DNA of 64,000 bases, taken from positions 6,012-70,011 of the forward strand of contig JAZNAX010000029.1 in the NCBI GenBank assembly GCA_045586765.1, written 5' to 3'. The notes beneath the pieces were generated by a model that worked only from the letters and a program-made list of their open reading frames with translations, searched no databases and had not been told where the DNA came from. This DNA is from Christensenellaceae bacterium. GTDB lineage: Bacteria; Bacillota; Clostridia; Christensenellales; Borkfalkiaceae. A program made the translations under genes and the position numbers. Position 1 is the stretch's first letter. Every line of letters starts with the position of its first letter. This document shows, in pieces, positions 1,997 through 57,296 of this stretch.

Positions 1997-2007
1997 TGTG
2001 ATAATTT

Positions 2008-2700
2008 ATGAAACTAAAAAAATTAAAATACTTTACAAAAACTGAACTTGCCATTTGGATAGGTTCAATAATTTTAATCGTGTCTGCATTTTGCATTTTT
2101 GATGGCAAAAAATATCTAAACATGATTGCTTCGTTAGTGGGAACAACGGCTCTTATCTTTTGTGCAAAAGGAAATCCATTAGGGCAAGCGCTTATGATAG
2201 TCTTTGCTTCGCTTTATGCCTATATATCTTTATCGTTTAAGTATTATGGCGAAATGATGACGTATCTTGGCATGAGTTTGCCTATGTCTGTCGTGGCACT
2301 TATATCGTGGCTAAAAAATCCATCTAAAGAAAGCAAGGCAGAAGTTAAGGTTAACACGCTTTCAAAAAAAGAAATGCTTTTTGGCTTTATTGTTGCGCTT
2401 GTTGTGACAGGTATATTTTATTTTATAATGAGAGAATTAGGAACATCAAACTTAGTTATAAGCACTGTTTCTATCACAACAAGTTTTTTTGCAGCCTATT
2501 TAACTTTTAGAAGATGCGAATACTTTGCTTTAGCATATGCGCTTAACGATATCGTGCTTATTATTATGTGGATAATGGCAACTATAAAAAACATAAGTTA
2601 TATATCGGTTATAATTTGCTTTTTAGTTTTTTTAGTAAACGATACTTATAGCTATTTAAATTGGAAAAAAATGAAAGCACGCCAACGAGACGCCGAATAA
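2008..2700 (+). CDS. pnuC: PnuC-like nicotinamide riboside / NMN-family transporter
   Basis: 230 aa polytopic membrane protein. Size, about 7 TM layout and the C-terminal LVNDTYSYLNW motif resemble the PnuC family. Recognised by eye only. Confidence 0.5.
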   Translation: MKLKKLKYFTKTELAIWIGSIILIVSAFCIFDGKKYLNMIASLVGTTALIFCAKGNPLGQALMIVFASLYAYISLSFKYYGEMMTYLGMSLPMSVVALISWLKNPSKESKAEVKVNTLSKKEMLFGFIVALVVTGIFYFIMRELGTSNLVISTVSITTSFFAAYLTFRRCEYFALAYALNDIVLIIMWIMATIKNISYISVIICFLVFLVNDTYSYLNWKKMKARQRDAE

Positions 2701-2718
2701 AATTTATAAAATATGCAA

Positions 2719-2756
2719 CAAAAAACAACCTTTGAGTAGTTCAAAGGTTGTTTTTA
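2719..2756. terminator. bidirectional terminator shared by pnuC-like and XRE genes
   Basis: CAACCTTTGA (2726-2735) pairs with TCAAAGGTTG (2741-2750). An A run lies on the left and a T run on the right. Confidence 0.7.
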
Positions 2757-2966
2757 GTTTTCAAAGCCAAAAAATAAGTTTGGCGAAACATTAAAATTAA
2801 CACAAATAGAATAAATGCAGTCATAAGTAGGCTTTTTTCTTCCCAAAAGCCATTGGCTGACAGTCGTTTGATTTACACCTATAATAGATGCAAATTTTAA
2901 TTGACTTAAATCATAATCGTGCATTATTTGTTTAATTATTTCGATATAAGGCATTTCTTCTTTCAT
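2754..2966 (-). CDS. XRE-family helix-turn-helix transcriptional regulator (70 aa)
   Basis: LSQLKFASIIGVNQTTVSQWLLGRKKPTYD is a canonical Cro/C1-type HTH. The gene is transcribed away from the palindrome array. Confidence 0.75.
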   Translation of the reverse strand: MKEEMPYIEIIKQIMHDYDLSQLKFASIIGVNQTTVSQWLLGRKKPTYDCIYSICVNFNVSPNLFFGFEN

Positions 2967-3034
2967 AATAAATTCTCAAGGAAACTATATATTAAGCACC
3001 TTTTAACAAGGAACATAAAAATTATACCAGTCAA

Positions 3035-3381
3035 TAGGTCAAAAGTCTTGAAATAGGTCAAAAGACCTAAAACCAATATAAAATAAAACTACTAGTCGTG
3101 TAAATCAAAAAAATGGACTTATATAATGTAGGTGTAGGTCAAAAGACCTATATGCAAGTAGAATGAAGATAAATGCTGTTTTTTAATATGAGTACAGGTT
3201 AAATGACCTATAGAAAAGTTTGATGAAGAAAATGTGGCTTTGCAGAACATGGTTTTAAGGCAAAATGCCTTATATAATGTAGCAATAGGTTAAAAGACCT
3301 AGTCTTAATTTATCCTAAGTATACAAAGTCGATATTATAGTAAATATAGGTCAAAAGACATTATTTAGGTCATTTGACCTA
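3035..3381. repeat. array of eight 14-16 bp inverted-repeat sites, consensus TAGGTCA-NN-(T/A)GACCTA
   Basis: Copies: 3035-3049 (degenerate), 3054-3069 (TAGGTCAAAAGACCTA), 3135-3150 (TAGGTCAAAAGACCTA), 3195-3210 (CAGGTTAAATGACCTA), 3257-3272 (variant TAAGGCAAAATGCCTTA), 3286-3301 (TAGGTTAAAAGACCTA), 3347-3362 (right half degenerate) and 3366-3381 (TAGGTCATTTGACCTA). Two longer 33-nt repeats, 3118-3150 and 3269-3301, match at 29 of 33 positions. Confidence 0.85.
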
Positions 3382-3530
3382 TAGGTGAAAATAAAACAAT
3401 TTAGGTAAACTTATATTATAAAAGGGAGAGAAAGATAAGAATAAATATTTAGCAAGGAAAGAGAAGGGGCATAAACAAAGTCTTTAACAAAAAACAAGAA
3501 GAAAGGACATCCCTATTTGGCCACTAGACT

Positions 3531-3567
3531 ATCAATTGAAGCACATGGGTCAATTGATTGTCTTTTT
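3531..3567 (+). terminator. terminator-like hairpin downstream of the palindrome array
   Basis: ATCAATTG (3531-3538) pairs with CAATTGAT (3551-3558) across a 12-nt loop, followed by TGTCTTTTT. Confidence 0.45.
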
Positions 3568-3570
3568 CTA

Positions 3571-3599
3571 TTGTTTTAAATCAAAAAAAGTGATATAAT
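3571..3599 (+). promoter_or_regulatory. sigma-A type promoter (TTGTTT-17-TGaTATAAT)
   Basis: -35 TTGTTT at 3571-3576, 17-nt spacer, and an extended -10 TGATATAAT (TG 3591-3592, TATAAT 3594-3599). Confidence 0.55.
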
Positions 3600-3600
3600 T

Positions 3601-3617
3601 ATGACAAAAGATGTCAT
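3601..3617. promoter_or_regulatory. operator-like palindrome ATGACA-aaaga-TGTCAT at the predicted transcription start
   Basis: Perfect 6-bp arms immediately downstream of the -10 box. The layout (arms separated by an A-rich spacer) matches that of the array sites. Confidence 0.4.
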
Positions 3618-3654
3618 TATGCTTGTTTATAATAAAAGATAAAAGGAAAAGATT

Positions 3655-3942
3655 ATGGCTATTGGAATAGGAAAGAATTTCGCATATTCAGGTAAAGGTG
3701 GCAATATGCGCGCATATTGCTGACGTAAGGATATATATTTGGGAAAAGAAGAAATTGATTTGACAGGACCGGACGGAGATGGTGTGGTGTCGATTGGCCC
3801 AGATTGTTTTAATGGTTTTACCAATTTAAAGCATGTAAAATTGCCAAACACTATCGTAAGAATTTGCTCAATGGCTTTTTATTCATGTAAAAAATTAGAA
3901 GAAATAAATTTAAATGATGATATAACTAAAATAGGTGAGTAG
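3655..3942 (+). pseudogene. remnant of a BspA-type leucine-rich-repeat (LRR_5) protein gene, with an in-frame TGA and a 3' truncation
   Basis: ATG 3655 (RBS AAAAGGAAAAG) opens a frame that hits TGA at 3721-3723. The same frame then continues as ...GPDCFNGFTNLKHVKLPNTIVRICSMAFYSCKKLEEINL..., matching the LRR units of the intact genes at 22795 and 47701. Only about 2 repeats remain. Confidence 0.55.
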
Positions 3943-4051
3943 AAATGTGCGAAAGGACGCGAATGGCTACAATAGGTCAATCTTAATAATTATTTGAAAT
4001 AAGTAATGTACTGTATTAAAAATTGTGGTTGAAATTTTTACAAGGGGAATT

Positions 4052-7000
4052 ATGAAAACCTTAAACGAAGAAAGAAAAATTAAAGAATATTTAGCGGAAT
4101 ATAATTTACCATTAATAGTTAAAAAGACTAGCTGGTGGGGGGATTTTTGTTTTTCTATAGAAAAAGTTTCTAATAACGTTGCGTATGGTAAAAGATTAAA
4201 AAGTGGTGTTTTTTATGATGATTTTACTTGTAGCATAAATGAATTATATTTGTTGTATGGCAAAAACGAGAAGATTGTTGAAGAAAATTCATCTTCATTA
4301 CCGTTTGTTACAAAAGTGGAGCCAAATCCAAATAATTTAGAATTAGATAAGTCTAAGTATATTAGTGGTCGTACAACGCTTTTTGTAAAAGATGGTTCTA
4401 AAAATAAAAAAGTTGTTTTTTTACGGTTTGCAATTAAAAATGGTAAAGATGTTATATATGTAAAGAAAGGTGAAAAAACACTTTTTTATGCTTTTCCAAA
4501 TACAATATATCTTTTTCCTAACAAAGATGATGTTGAAGATGCAATATCAAAGGAAAATAGACAAAATACTAATAATAAACTGATTTTATCCATTTTATCG
4601 ACTTTTAATAAATTACCAAAAGCAACAAAAGCAAGTAAGTCCCAAGATGTTGAGAATAAAAAAGAAAGAACTTACCATAAAAAAGTTGACAATGAACTAA
4701 AAATCAAATTACAAGAACCTAAAAATAGATTGGCGATAGCAGAACATGATGCAAAATATGCAGAACAAGATTATGTAGAAGCAATAAGAAATGCGAGAGA
4801 AAATGGTGACGTCTTAGATTCGTTTTCTCAATCAAGTCATTATATAACTCTTCAAACCATACAACCAAGAATACAAAGCGCACAAGCTGAAATTAATAAA
4901 ATTAATGAAATTATATCAAAACCATATTTTGCAAGAATAGACTGTGGTTCAAATATAAATGACTTACATACAGCATATATTGGAGATAAGGATATACCAG
5001 GGTTTGTTGTAGATTGGCGTAATTCTGATGTGGGAAATGCATATTATCAATCCGCTTTTTTGATGAATAAAGACGGTATTTTATTGGTTTTAAAAAGATT
5101 GATAGAAATTCAACATGGCGTTTATAAAAAGTACAAGGATGAAATAAACTTGTATGGTTCTAATGAAATTATAAAAAATGATATGAAAAAAGCGACAGAT
5201 GATTTCTTAAATGAATTATTACAACAAAGCCGTCTTGATAAAAAGACCCATGATATAATTAAGACTATACAGTCAGAACAATATGAAATAATAACTTCAA
5301 ACTTTGAACAAAATGCGGTTGTTAATGGTTGTGCGGGTTCTGGTAAAACAATGATAATGTATCATAGATTATCGTATATTGCATACAACTATGAGAGTAA
5401 AACAGGGGAAAGCTTAAACCCAGAAAATATTTATGTAATTACACCTTCGGCGTATTTTAACATAAATAATATGGACTTGTTGGAAAAATTATCATTAAAT
5501 AAAATTAACCATATGCAATTTTCAGGGTTTATTGATGAGTTTATAAGATTATACTCAGTAAAATACAAAATTGCACCGCTGAATTATTTAATTGAAATTT
5601 CTAATTTTAATGACAATAATGAATGTTGTGATTTTTATAGTGAATCAACATATAATAAATTTGTTTGCCAATTAGAAGAGATAGATAAAAATGAAAAAAT
5701 TAAGAATAGTTATATTGAGTGGGTATTGAATCTAGTTAATAAGATATTGCTAGATGTGGGTTTTGAGCGACTAAATATAATAAATGACGAACTTGTTAAT
5801 ATGGTTGATATTTTATATAGCGATAAATATTATAGAAACCGTTGCTTTATAAAAAACGATTCTCTATTGGTTGATTTAGAAAATAAGTATTATCAAAAAT
5901 CTGCCATATGTGATTTTTCATATCAAAACATTATTGCGTCATTAAACGAAATGGATAAGACAAAAACTACATATAAAAAAAGGAAAAAGAGATTAGATAA
6001 AAGCGTGTCTATATTCAAGAGCTGTCTTTCACTTAAGACTTTAATGAATGATTATGGTGGGGTAGAGACGAATATAAAAAAGTTTTGGAATATTTTCGAA
6101 AAACCTGAAATTTTCAAGAAAATGCTTGCGCTAATTAACGTTGAAAACATCTTAAATTCTATAAAAAACAAAAGCTCTTCAAAAAAAGATTATTTGTTAA
6201 GAGGTGTTTTTGTCGCCTCTAACATGTTTAGCAGTTCGAATTTAAGAAACTTACCGTTATATTTTTTAAATGCTTTAACGAGAAAATATGGCTCATTAAT
6301 AGATAAAGAATCCTTTGTTTTTATAGATGAATTTCAAAATTTTTCTTCGTTTGAAATTAAAGTTTTAAAAAATGTTTTTTCAAATCCGGTTTTTAATTTA
6401 TATGGCGATTATGACCAGAGACTAGGAAGGAAAGGGGAAGATATAAAAGAAAATTTACATGCTTTGTTGTCTCCTAATATGTACAATCTTAATATAAATT
6501 ATCGTAATGCAAAACAAATTACAGAATATATTAACAAAATAGTTAATAAAAATATGCATCCTATTGGTGTTGATGGTGAAGTTAATGTTTGCAAACTCAA
6601 CGACTGTTCATTTGATATTGTTGATAGAACTGCTATAATTGTAAAGGAAGTTGAATTAAGTAAGGCAGTTTTATTATCTTGCTTTAAAAAAGATGAATTA
6701 AATTTTATTTATGAGTCGAATGAATTTGATTATAAAAAATACAACGTGCTAAGTGTCGACGATAGTAAAGGGCTTGAGTTTGACAATGTTTATGTGTTTA
6801 CCGCAAATATGAATGATAATGAAAAATACGTAGCGCTTACACGTGCTTTAGAGAAGTTAACGGTAATAGACGATGAGGTGTTTGAAGAAGTAGTAAACCT
6901 TAAAAAAAATGATAGTGTTAAAACAAAAGAACTGCCAGAAAAAGAGATTATTAATAAAGGCGAAGCTGTTGAAGTAATAAAAGAAAAAAAATATTTGGAT

Positions 7001-7264
7001 GATAACAATGCAGTGATAGGCGAACAATTCAAAACAAATAGTGTTGAATGTGTATATTTAATTAGTCAAGGTAATAAAGAAAAGAATAAAATAAAGGAAG
7101 GCAAACAAGAGATGGAAGAATTATTAAAAGAGCGAGAACATCTTATGTGTGAATTAAAATTAAATAAAGGAATATTTAAAACTAAAAAAAGAAGCGAAAT
7201 AGAAAAAGAAATAATTGACCTGGATGGTAAAATAATTAACAAGATGTATGAATTATTGTCATGA
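4052..7264 (+). CDS. HelD-like UvrD/Rep superfamily-1 helicase/ATPase with extra N- and C-terminal regions (1070 aa)
   Basis: Walker A GCAGSGKTM (about nt 5330-5350), motif II FVFIDEFQNF (about 6320-6340), NYRNAKQI, SKGLEFDNVYVF and YVALTRALEKL. The HelD-type N-terminal signature is KPYFARIDCG...YIGDKDIPGFVVDWRNSDVGNAYYQ (about 4921-5050). About 330 aa are inserted between Walker A and motif II. Start moved from GTG 4025 to ATG 4052, which sits behind RBS AAGGGGA. Confidence 0.8.
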   Translation: MKTLNEERKIKEYLAEYNLPLIVKKTSWWGDFCFSIEKVSNNVAYGKRLKSGVFYDDFTCSINELYLLYGKNEKIVEENSSSLPFVTKVEPNPNNLELDKSKYISGRTTLFVKDGSKNKKVVFLRFAIKNGKDVIYVKKGEKTLFYAFPNTIYLFPNKDDVEDAISKENRQNTNNKLILSILSTFNKLPKATKASKSQDVENKKERTYHKKVDNELKIKLQEPKNRLAIAEHDAKYAEQDYVEAIRNARENGDVLDSFSQSSHYITLQTIQPRIQSAQAEINKINEIISKPYFARIDCGSNINDLHTAYIGDKDIPGFVVDWRNSDVGNAYYQSAFLMNKDGILLVLKRLIEIQHGVYKKYKDEINLYGSNEIIKNDMKKATDDFLNELLQQSRLDKKTHDIIKTIQSEQYEIITSNFEQNAVVNGCAGSGKTMIMYHRLSYIAYNYESKTGESLNPENIYVITPSAYFNINNMDLLEKLSLNKINHMQFSGFIDEFIRLYSVKYKIAPLNYLIEISNFNDNNECCDFYSESTYNKFVCQLEEIDKNEKIKNSYIEWVLNLVNKILLDVGFERLNIINDELVNMVDILYSDKYYRNRCFIKNDSLLVDLENKYYQKSAICDFSYQNIIASLNEMDKTKTTYKKRKKRLDKSVSIFKSCLSLKTLMNDYGGVETNIKKFWNIFEKPEIFKKMLALINVENILNSIKNKSSSKKDYLLRGVFVASNMFSSSNLRNLPLYFLNALTRKYGSLIDKESFVFIDEFQNFSSFEIKVLKNVFSNPVFNLYGDYDQRLGRKGEDIKENLHALLSPNMYNLNINYRNAKQITEYINKIVNKNMHPIGVDGEVNVCKLNDCSFDIVDRTAIIVKEVELSKAVLLSCFKKDELNFIYESNEFDYKKYNVLSVDDSKGLEFDNVYVFTANMNDNEKYVALTRALEKLTVIDDEVFEEVVNLKKNDSVKTKELPEKEIINKGEAVEVIKEKKYLDDNNAVIGEQFKTNSVECVYLISQGNKEKNKIKEGKQEMEELLKEREHLMCELKLNKGIFKTKKRSEIEKEIIDLDGKIINKMYELLS

Positions 7265-7375
7265 TGTTCTTCGCTTAATATTTATTGTGAAATAGAAAGC
7301 GAACCAAAAAATGGCGACACGGGTGGAATGCTAGTTGTCATGTTGTTCAGGGATATAATGATAATATTAATTTAT

Positions 7376-7409
7376 GCAAAAGCGTTAGAAAGTTTCTAAC
7401 GCTTTTTTG
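7376..7409 (+). terminator. rho-independent terminator after the helicase gene
   Basis: AGCGTTAGAA-agt-TTCTAACGCT followed by TTTTTT. Confidence 0.75.
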
Positions 7410-7501
7410 ATTTTTGGTTCTTCTAGTTAGGCACACTTTTAACAACTTATTACCTAATTCGAAAAGCAATAGTATGTTTGTTTTTTATGAATATTTTAAA
7501 C

Positions 7502-7538
7502 AAAAAAATACCTTCCTAGGGAAATGCTTAGGAAGGTA
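7502..7538 (-). terminator. rho-independent terminator of the small minus-strand unit
   Basis: On the minus strand, TACCTTCCTAAG...CTAGGAAGGTA is followed by a T7 run (complement of 7502-7508). Confidence 0.7.
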
Positions 7539-7654
7539 TATCTATGTTATTTAGTTTTTTTCTGTGCCTTTAACTATAAAGATTTGATTTAAGCAACTGT
7601 GCGATTTAATCTTTTGCCTTCTTTAAGGGCAATTTAATTAAGAATTTTATCTTT

Positions 7655-56573: not shown

Positions 56574-57296
56574 ATGAACGGACTTTTTTCACTTTTTATG
56601 AATAGTTTTTTTGACCTTTTTTATCAAAATTTAAGCCCTTCTACCTTGGCAATTGTCTTAAATGGTTTAGTGTGGCTCTTAACGATATTTTGCATGATTA
56701 TTTGTTTATCTAAAAGGCAATACGGCTTAATAAAAAGGCTGTGGATAGTGTTTGATTTTGTGGGAATTTGTTTAATAGAGTTCTGGTTCGAAATTAAAAA
56801 TAATGGGCAAATAACATTTGCCGTATATACTGTGGCAAGTTGCATTTTAGGACTTTCAATATGTTTATTTTTGCCAAAAAAACAAATGAAAATAAGTGAT
56901 GAAAAACGCTCTCTCGCTCAGTTTTTAGATAGGTGTGCAAATAGTCAAAATAGCCAGCAGAGTTATAAAAAAAATGCTTTAAATTATGCTGATGGTGGGG
57001 AATATAAGCCATCTAAAGTGTTTTCTTCGCCTATTATTAGCACAAACAATGTTGAATTTAATGGTCAAGAAAAAACTATAAACAAAAAAGATGAAGAAAT
57101 AGATTTTTCGCACATAAAAAACATATTAAGTAGGCTTGAGTATTATCCACTTAAAGAGCAAGATAAAAAAAGTGCCCTTGAACTTGAAAAAGCCATATTA
57201 GAAGCAGAAGAAAACGGACTCGACAAAAACTTAAAGCAAAACATTAACGAAGGGCTTGGTGCTCTACTTAAAATAATGGCAAAATATGCCGTGTAA
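56574..57296 (+). CDS. hypothetical membrane protein (240 aa)
   Basis: About four N-terminal TM helices, then a soluble helical C-terminus. No family recognised. Confidence 0.55.
   Translation: MNGLFSLFMNSFFDLFYQNLSPSTLAIVLNGLVWLLTIFCMIICLSKRQYGLIKRLWIVFDFVGICLIEFWFEIKNNGQITFAVYTVASCILGLSICLFLPKKQMKISDEKRSLAQFLDRCANSQNSQQSYKKNALNYADGGEYKPSKVFSSPIISTNNVEFNGQEKTINKKDEEIDFSHIKNILSRLEYYPLKEQDKKSALELEKAILEAEENGLDKNLKQNINEGLGALLKIMAKYAV

Follow-up and report, generated by a model that had tools for sequence, protein, structure and literature searches.

A palindrome array beside a small XRE-family repressor gene in a Christensenellaceae genome is probably an amplified and partly decayed promoter switch

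A stretch of 64,000 nucleotides from a Christensenellaceae bacterium (contig JAZNAX010000029.1 of assembly GCA_045586765.1; hereafter, the window) contains eight copies of a short palindrome at positions 3035 to 3381, in noncoding DNA between a divergent gene for a 70-aa XRE-family protein and a helicase gene, which raises the question of what these repeats are and how they came to be there. A preliminary description of this DNA left a choice between a multi-operator array for the adjacent XRE protein and iterons or a centromere-like site of a decayed mobile element. The first of these is strongly favored by comparison with relatives, where the same operator occupies fixed promoter positions beside an XRE homologue in 47 of 48 species. 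The operator has the form TAGGTC-N4-GACCTA, with half-sites 10 bp apart from center to center, lies beside the XRE gene, and overlaps promoter elements. We put the probability at about 0.78 that the array consists of operators of the adjacent 70-aa XRE repressor and that successive rounds of unequal recombination in a conserved bidirectional promoter switch gave rise to it.

The palindrome cluster is real and far above chance. The pattern TAGGTCAAAAGACCTA, with up to 3 mismatches allowed, matches at 3035, 3054, 3135, 3195, 3286, 3347, and 3366, and together with a 15-nt variant, AAGGCAAAATGCCTT, these seven matches account for the eight palindromes described earlier. The variant spans 3257 to 3271 and does not extend to 3272, and the copy at 3195 to 3210, previously credited with a single mismatch, reads CAGGTTAAATGACCTA and has two half-site mismatches. 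Other details of the preliminary description stand, namely, the exact copies at 3054 to 3069 and 3135 to 3150, the copy TAGGTCATTTGACCTA at 3366 to 3381, and two 33-nt units (3118 to 3150 and 3269 to 3301) that are identical at 29 of 33 positions and carry TATAAT at 3122 to 3127 and 3273 to 3278. The center-to-center distances between the eight sites are 19, 81, 60, 61.5, 29.5, 61, and 19 bp, within about 1 bp of those given before. Beyond the array, the only match to TAGGTCAAAAGACCTA in the window is at 56603, with 3 mismatches. In 100 dinucleotide-preserving shuffles of the 64 kb, the mean number of matches was 0.70 and the maximum was 4; 9 matches were reached in none of them. The motif had not been noticed in any other intergenic region of the window, and its palindromic form is indeed confined to the array; ten further TAGGTCA heptamers are present, none of them as part of a palindrome. 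TRF detected no tandem repeat in the window, because the copies are too diverged. No paper containing the motif string was found in a literature search, and a scan of viral contigs for the exact 16-mer gave 27 single unclustered matches, one per contig, and no arrays, which is uninformative.

A scan of 185,579 species genomes with a 26-nt pattern, GGTCAAAAGTCTTGANATAGGTCAAA, identified 48 species-level metagenome-assembled genomes (MAGs), each of which contains exactly one copy of a near-invariant cassette, AGGTCAAAAGTC-TTGACA-TAGGTCAAAAGACCTnn-TATAAT. These MAGs come from human, ruminant, rabbit, and chicken gut and belong to Christensenellaceae, “Candidatus Borkfalkia,” “Candidatus Scatosoma,” Pumilibacteraceae, and other Clostridia. 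A divergent gene for an XRE homologue (52 to 97% identity) is found directly upstream of the cassette in 47 of the 48, with its start 20 to 40 nt away; the exception is a cassette at a contig end. Positions outside the search pattern are also conserved. Thus, TATAAT is found exactly 17 nt past the -35 element in 42 of the 47 species, and the right half of the second operator (O2) reads AGACCT in 37. The -35 element is TTGACA in 44 of the 47, TTGAAA being found in array alleles only, and O2 is placed exactly between TTGACA and TATAAT in 42 to 45. On the minus strand, a -10 element (TATAAT or TAAAAT; ATTATA or ATTTTA on the plus strand) lies 10 nt to the left of the first operator (O1) in 39 species, and the XRE start codon lies 6 to 8 nt beyond it (at -24 to -26) in 44. 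Since the ATG is so close to this -10 element, the XRE mRNA is apparently leaderless in most species and would be transcribed from a promoter placed back-to-back with that of the target gene; the predicted divergent start sites are ~70 bp apart, both promoters being predicted from their consensus.

The consensus promoter of the cassette is directed away from XRE, toward mutually unrelated genes for envelope proteins. These targets include SHOCT, TM2, bPH_2, and zinc-ribbon membrane proteins, lipoproteins, a membrane protein with a helix-turn-helix (HTH) domain, a 942-aa BspA-type leucine-rich-repeat (LRR) surface protein, and a 993-aa Flg_new protein. An HTH domain is found in 4 of the 38 predicted targets, and all four are membrane anchored. 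In 464 kb of sequence from 61 related loci, the palindrome (with at most one half-site mismatch) occurs in 63 copies inside XRE cassettes, and the 2 copies scored outside them are cassettes that the search expression had missed. In this sample, then, the palindrome never stands outside an XRE cassette, and by its distribution the motif is tied to XRE.

The canonical layout is seen in close relatives of the window strain (related loci are cited below by L numbers where they have to be told apart). The XRE protein encoded on L001, a metagenome contig, is identical to that of the window, but this contig has three sites only. Its cassette, TAGGTCAAAAGTC-TTGACA-TAGGTCAAATGACCTT-G-TATAAT-GCTAGTA-TAGGTCAAATGACCTA, is a perfect TTGACA-17-TATAAT promoter pointing away from XRE, with one operator over the -35 element, one filling the spacer, and one at +1, and is followed by a leader of ~150 nt and a gene for a 200-aa membrane protein. 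The same three-operator layout is found in L029 to L034 (XRE 96% identical), L041 (99%), L042 and L084 (97%), L090 to L097, L099, and L108 to L109. The membrane proteins encoded after these canonical cassettes have 200 to 221 aa, and the XRE proteins of the carriers are 96 to 100% identical to that of the window. In blastn alignments, collinearity of L001 and L029 with the window ends at 3068, the penultimate base of O2, and resumes at 7498, so that 4.4 kb of the window (3069 to 7497) stands in for ~800 bp of the relatives that comprise the -10 element, the third operator (O3), the leader, and the membrane-protein gene. Because four-fold degenerate sites of the FTHFS gene are ~82% identical between the window and either the canonical allele L090 or the array allele L106, canonical and array alleles segregate, by this measure, within one species complex.

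The array of the window can be read as a rearranged form of this cassette. Its left end, unit A (3035 to 3069), is the O1/-35/O2 part. O1 (TAGGTCAAAAGTCTTG, 3035 to 3050), recognized by the motif scan and by comparison, has its right half over the former -35 element (TTGAAA, 3048 to 3053), and O2 (3054 to 3069) is a perfect palindrome, which in canonical alleles fills the 17-bp spacer between -35 and -10 but is not followed by a -10 element here. The core promoter of the target gene is broken in the window, as the -35 element is TTGAAA and the hexamer 17 nt further on is AACCAA instead of a -10 element. Four units on the plus strand follow. When aligned to the 46-nt O2/-10/O3 block of the canonical alleles L029, L001, and L041, they need practically no gaps, and the columns are on average 80% identical. 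Unit B (3105 to 3150) is a decayed block with TATAAT at 3122 to 3127 and its operator at 3135 to 3150; the more decayed unit C (3166 to 3210) has TAATAT at 3185 to 3190 and the operator CAGGTTAAATGACCTA at 3195 to 3210. Unit D (3257 to 3301), which is conserved in L075, L100, and L106, comprises the O2 variant at 3257 to 3271, TATAAT at 3273 to 3278, and an operator at 3286 to 3301, whereas unit E (3318 to 3362), in which a decayed -10 element precedes the operator TAGGTCAAAAGACATT at 3347 to 3362, sits in a stretch of 80 nt that L075 and L106 lack. The O3 operator is kept in all four units, the O2 part and the -10 element are variably decayed, and TATAAT is intact in B and D only; by this alignment, the TATAAT boxes pointed out earlier are -10 elements of the cassette promoter, here present as duplicated relics. 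The terminal operator (3366 to 3381) is 19 bp from the operator of unit E, the same as the distance from O1 to O2; the repeat family to which it belongs is 78% identical to 3034 to 3069, and the operator itself is identical in L075 and L106. The eight sites thus represent O1, O2, four copies of O3, one recognizable copy of O2, and one terminal copy, and all units have the same orientation. Between units A and B, a consensus scan (10 of 12 positions) finds a leftward promoter-like site, TTTACA-18-TATATT, on the minus strand at 3075 to 3104. The array alleles L075, L101, and L106 have kept this site, and its putative transcript would start approximately at O2 and read toward XRE.

Array alleles differ in copy number, with three operators in L100, where one unit is missing, five in L075, L106, and L107, and eight in the window, the longest array seen. 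L075 (the same as L098) is a 2.6-kb contig of the MAG GCA_045587245.1 that aligns to the window at 2308 to 3301 and 3427 to 3587 with 82 to 83% identity. It has five operators, TTGAAA, and the leader and hairpin of the window. Where the window has LRR fragments and the helicase, L075 carries a gene for a DEDDh exonuclease-BRCT protein, and its alignment with the window resumes at 7377 to 7634. L106 and L107 combine five operators with the same hairpin and a promoter box, TGATATAAT, and have a small membrane protein as cargo. In L101, a 95-nt unit, [O1-TTGAAA-O2-60 nt], is tandemly duplicated (2.0 copies, 96% identity) up to the end of the contig. The MAG assembly that contains L075 also contains a canonical allele, L092, in which O1 and O2 have fused with loss of the -35 element. 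Judged by their sequences, these variants are the products expected of unequal recombination between short direct repeats. Scans of JGI metagenomes for the leader of the array alleles and for the TTGAAA variant of the cassette gave no matches. Taken together, these sequence comparisons show that the motif is the same as a conserved promoter-embedded palindrome linked to XRE, that the array originated by duplication, that the target gene has been lost, and that both cargo and copy number vary.

A mechanism consistent with these data would be as follows. In the canonical switch of this clade, a TTGACA-17-TATAAT promoter reads away from XRE, with O1 over the -35 element, O2 in the spacer, and O3 at +1, and the XRE promoter lies back-to-back with it, its -10 box being 10 nt from O1. 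By analogy with XRE/Cro-C1 repressors and sigma-70-type promoters, XRE dimers bound to the 16-bp palindromes in the spacer and at +1 would sterically block RNA polymerase at the target promoter and would also feed back on their own promoter, in the manner of lambda CI at OR. As the 70-aa XRE protein has no sensor domain, induction would therefore need an anti-repressor, proteolysis, or titration. In the window allele, amplification has left four copies of the 46-nt O2/-10/O3 block in various states of decay, the membrane-protein gene of the canonical alleles is gone, and a terminator insulates the array from the downstream cargo. The original target is no longer under the control of the window array, but its sites most probably remain occupied by XRE, for which they would provide autoregulation. 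Continued use is suggested by retention of the XRE -10 element (3029 to 3021), by conservation of the leftward promoter-like site, by purifying selection on XRE, and by the higher conservation of operators (94% identical between the window and L075) than of spacers (80%; Fisher p = 0.005).

Several points weigh against this interpretation. Within the 26-nt search pattern, conservation is a circular argument, and only the flanking positions are independent; the search for further sites in the strain's own genome covered the 64-kb window. Repression, autoregulation, and leaderless translation are all predicted from the positions of the elements. The contrast between operators and spacers could partly come from alignment anchoring or gene conversion between repeats, and the aligned noncoding array is 86% identical to that of L106, about the same as the FTHFS four-fold sites (82%), so that the array as a whole may be drifting neutrally. 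No -35 element accompanies the rightward -10 boxes, which are not called by the consensus scan, and the leader has neither a conserved open reading frame (ORF) nor significant structure beyond its hairpin, with the cargo insulated by the terminator, all of which argues against an array still in use. Finally, the -10 element after O2 may have been lost in either of two ways, through an O2/O3 fusion or through an insertion between O2 and -10.

Among the other explanations, one takes the array as a working control region for rightward transcription, in which the TATAAT boxes at 3122 and 3273 would be XRE-repressed tandem promoters and the products either noncoding RNAs of ~290 to 440 nt that end at the hairpin at 3526 to 3579 or a read-through operon of the LRR fragments and the helicase. 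These two perfect boxes do retain the canonical -10-N7-operator geometry, four alleles that differ in cargo have kept the leader and the terminator hairpin, and the better conservation of operators would fit as well. However, neither box has a -35 element (TGTAAA, 3 of 6 positions; TGGTTT, 2 of 6) or a TG extension, the equivalent of unit B in L075 and L106 lacks TATAAT, and that of unit D has TAAAAT. Apart from the terminator, no significant structure was found in the leader (z = -1.77 for its whole length), an Rfam 15 scan of 2000 to 5000 at E <= 1 gave no match within 2967 to 4051, and the cargo of every allele has its own TGATATAAT promoter past the terminator, which makes this explanation decidedly improbable. 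Slightly less so, though still unlikely, is a contingency locus or recombination hotspot, in which unequal exchange would switch the promoter of the envelope gene and aid cargo exchange, and copy number would be under selection. Each of the rearrangements expected under this hypothesis is represented among the relatives, from the O1/O2 fusion in L092 through the 95-nt duplication in L101 and the loss of a unit in L100 to the amplification in the window; a single MAG assembly, GCA_045587245.1, has both a canonical and an array allele (contig 16 and contig 10, respectively), the downstream slot is filled by at least four different genes, and the targets are surface and membrane proteins, the usual subjects of phase variation. 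Against this, deletions between repeats of 19 to 30 bp are not readily reversible, there is no recombinase nearby, the copies in the window are for the most part old and diverged, the two alleles in one MAG may reflect a strain mixture, and the cargo boundaries (3588 and ~7377) fall outside the operators. A related and similarly doubtful proposal is that the operators double as recombination substrates, exchange among O1, O2, and O3 (19 and 30 bp apart) and among 95-nt units giving rise to heritable ON, OFF, or rewired alleles of the envelope locus and marking the cargo slot; if true, the XRE switch of at least 48 species of gut Clostridia would amount to a portable “regulated expression socket” whose structural instability is built in.

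The palindromes could also be iterons, a parS-like centromere, or an origin left by a decayed plasmid, integrative and conjugative element, or prophage, as the preliminary description had proposed on seeing many short repeats in an AT-rich noncoding kilobase next to pseudogene fragments and a helicase gene; the replacement of 3069 to 7497 relative to relatives would agree with this. The locus is nevertheless chromosomal and syntenic (FTHFS-PnuC-XRE...RimK-HSP20-HSP90, with rpoBC and the genes for EF-G and EF-Tu further away), its flanks are core genes, and no Rep, Par, or integrase genes are present. In 47 of the 48 chromosomal loci the motif lies in a promoter beside XRE, its copies are irregularly spaced, unlike regular direct iterons, blastn of 2754 to 3600 found no match in 72,556 plasmids or 50,697 phages, and the viral contigs with the 16-mer contain single matches and no arrays; we consider such an origin very improbable. 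An accidental local cluster of a dispersed repetitive extragenic palindrome (REP) would account for a short imperfect palindrome in many copies but is next to impossible, given the lack of any other palindromic copy in the window, the confinement to XRE cassettes across the 464 kb of relatives, and the single cassette per species genome; the genome-wide dispersal that had been named as a way to overturn the proposal was not found in the window or in these loci. A CRISPR array had already been dismissed, rightly, since the repeats are degenerate, their spacing is irregular, and the spacers are homologous to one another.

The favored reading, an XRE operator array derived from a promoter switch, has its closest functional analogues in the lambda CI/OR and pLS20 Rco switches. 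As in the lambda CI/OR region, the gene for a small HTH repressor and a strong promoter are arranged back-to-back, the -35 element, the spacer, and +1 of that promoter are covered by two or three palindromic operators of ~16 to 17 bp, the repressor mRNA is apparently leaderless (like cI transcribed from PRM), and the operators adjoin the repressor's own -10 element, which would permit autoregulation. In contrast to lambda, there is no Cro-like second regulator and no prophage, a single envelope-protein target varies from species to species, the 70-aa XRE protein has no C-terminal oligomerization or cleavage domain, and the switch of the window has been amplified to eight sites with loss of the target. 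Divergent promoters sharing an operator region are thus present, as judged by consensus, and no antagonistic Cro is found on the divergent transcript. For the Bacillus plasmid pLS20, Rco is described (PMC4207663) as an XRE-type regulator of overlapping divergent promoters of unequal strength that binds multiple sites in separate operators, one of them downstream of the strong promoter, with demonstrated autoregulation and DNA looping. The array of the window likewise has site clusters at its two ends (3035 to 3069 and 3347 to 3381, 312 bp apart), a layout that is equally well explained by the duplication history. The Rco system differs in being plasmid-borne, controlling a conjugation operon, and using a tetramer with the anti-repressor Rap/Phr; no sequence similarity to it was found.

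Controller (C) proteins of restriction-modification systems and their C-boxes share with XRE a very small XRE-fold HTH protein, paired palindromes immediately upstream, and autoregulation, which for XRE is predicted. C proteins are co-transcribed with a nuclease gene, whereas the target gene here is divergent and unrelated to restriction-modification, with no methyltransferase or endonuclease gene adjacent. The HTH domain also resembles the antitoxins PezA and HigA, but there is no toxin gene beside XRE, and the similarity is that of the generic XRE fold. By its domain and operator features, the system would therefore be placed in the XRE family and outside the CI/Cro, antitoxin, C-protein, and iteron families. 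The array is very probably an ordinary regulatory element in an unusual, recombination-scarred, and partly vestigial state and does not represent a new regulatory principle. Its interest lies in defining an operator, TAGGTC-N4-GACCTA, and a full promoter architecture for a previously uncharacterized small XRE repressor conserved very widely among the uncultured Christensenellales of the gut and related Clostridia, whose regulatory biology is almost unstudied. The 45-bp cassette, a perfect consensus promoter with an operator in its spacer, might be reused in these bacteria as a repressible promoter part. How such a switch decays is also illustrated by the window, with internal repeats driving deletions and amplifications and the native envelope gene swapped for cargo, some of it defense-like, while the XRE repressor remains under strong selection even though its target gene has been lost in the window strain.

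The XRE gene itself (2754 to 2966, minus strand) is assigned to the HTH_3 repressors from its Pfam match (PF01381, 30.1 bits versus a cutoff of 23, residues 12 to 64), its homologues, of which Clostridia MAGs contain 395 with 65 to 70 aa, and its pattern of substitutions. Synonymous and nonsynonymous codon differences number 6:0 in L001, 17:2 in L041, 20:2 in L042, and 23:3 in L029, a clear sign of an intact gene under purifying selection. The best matches among solved structures in the PDB are the N-terminal domain of PezA (2p5t, E = 4e-5), protein 11 of prophage Lp1, and a HigA-like antidote (3cec), and these reflect the shared XRE fold alone. At the DNA level, the XRE gene is 98.6% identical to that of L090, versus 94.5% for PnuC and FTHFS, and the PnuC gene of L106 is strongly divergent, with 48% identity at four-fold sites versus 82% in FTHFS, which together suggest recombination mosaicism around the XRE locus.

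The XRE promoter is represented in the window by a -10 box, TGGTATAAT, on the minus strand at 3021 to 3029, 10 nt from O1, an offset that is conserved across species. In the window clade, the XRE ATG is 55 nt further on than in the leaderless arrangement, and a 55-nt leader (2966 to 3020, minus strand) and an N-terminal MKEE extension replace the ancestral layout. A 17-codon ORF begins 4 nt past the -10 box, and its TGA stop codon overlaps the XRE start (ATGA); this overlap is probably accidental, because the frame relation is not kept in L075. The canonical alleles L090 (5717 to 6000), L099, and L108 have three or four direct repeats of ~20 nt, similar to CTATACNGTTTATCAAAAA, between the XRE -10 box and the ATG, and L001 has two such copies in the 5' untranslated region (UTR) of XRE; no such repeats are found in the array alleles, the window included. 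The convergent PnuC and XRE genes are separated by a 19-bp hairpin (2717 to 2759; 95% complementary), which is probably a bidirectional terminator and for which the sub-threshold Rfam matches to the small RNAs psRNA14 and ncr1015 are most likely terminator look-alikes.

Downstream of the array, a purine-rich noncoding leader (3382 to 3525, plus strand) is common to the array alleles, with 81 to 86% identity to L075 and L106, and may derive from the 5' UTR, ribosome-binding site, and first codons of the target gene. Its likeness to the canonical leader, GAAAAGGAGAAGGCTATGAAATTTAACAAAACAAAAAGAGG, was seen by eye and is not statistically secured, the MAFFT alignment of these A-rich sequences being ambiguous. 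No small ORF on either strand is common to the leaders of the window and L075. The array/leader segment is closed by a terminator-like hairpin with a T-run (3526 to 3579, plus strand; arms at 3526 to 3539 and 3550 to 3563), whose stem of ~15 bp is kept in the window, L075, L106, and L102, with G-U pairs and one compensatory change. Past this hairpin, and outside the array, the cargo starts with an extended -10 promoter, TGATATAAT, on the plus strand at 3591 to 3599, which is found in the same place in L102 and L106 before other genes; every cargo starts past the terminator with an extended -10 element of its own. A further palindrome, ATGACAAAAGATGTCAT (3601 to 3617), directly follows this promoter and is also present in L102, whereas L106 has the promoter without it; it may be the operator of another regulator before the cargo operon.

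The gene order of the window is FTHFS (253 to 1926), a PnuC-type transporter (2008 to 2700), XRE, the 1-kb noncoding region, LRR fragments (3657 to 3942), a 1070-aa UvrD/helicase-IV-like protein (4052 to 7264), a RimK-type ATP-grasp protein, HSP20, HSP90, and the rpoBC and EF-G/EF-Tu region. The preliminary description had implied a link between the array and the helicase and had proposed to check whether array, XRE, and helicase travel together. This link is not supported by the comparison: at least three interchangeable cargos are known, other strains having an exonuclease or small membrane-protein gene in place of the helicase, and the helicase gene is absent from canonical alleles and lies behind the conserved terminator with its own promoter. 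XRE control of the helicase is therefore unlikely, and the helicase does not appear to be part of the system. The isolated TAGGTCA half-site at 3973, upstream of the helicase gene, is present as described, but since the corresponding sequence of L102, a 94%-identical strain, and of L103 reads TAGGACAA, the half-site is probably due to chance or decay. A decayed cassette before the helicase was also considered for this site and rejected as unsupported, being not conserved in L102.

The cargos deserve some comment of their own. The segment at 3657 to 3942 contains frameshifted remnants of a BspA-type LRR surface protein (LRR_5, E = 1e-12), in place of which L102 and L103 have a DUF4379 zinc-finger fragment, and in L044, from another species, the intact 942-aa BspA-LRR protein is a direct target of the XRE cassette. 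The cargo of L075 (1176 to 2423) encodes a 415-aa protein with DEDDh exonuclease (RNase_T) and BRCT domains, and its nuclease part matches PDC-S48, a candidate defense family of PADLOC (E = 1e-22). The helicase, hairpin, and TGATATAAT box are shared with L102 and L103 (helicase 91% identical at the amino acid level, 94% at the DNA level). Apart from one relative at 91%, no helicase homologue exceeds 44% identity, and an exact look-up of the protein found none on record. PADLOC gave only weak UvrD-motif matches to GajB, so that the helicase was not assigned to any known defense system. The neighborhood of a 40% identical homologue (P0163; L104, 4001 to 7573) looks like a defense island, with genes for HEPN_Swt1-SNF2, a sacsin-like ATPase, Macro, NYN, and ADP-ribosylglycohydrolase proteins.

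A second, unrelated small HTH gene is found in L037 (892 to 1190), divergent from a gene for a SHOCT membrane protein whose promoter, TTGACA-17-TATAAT, has a different palindrome, CACTAAGTATTCTTAGTG, in its spacer; the design with an operator inside the spacer therefore recurs with other specificities in these genomes.

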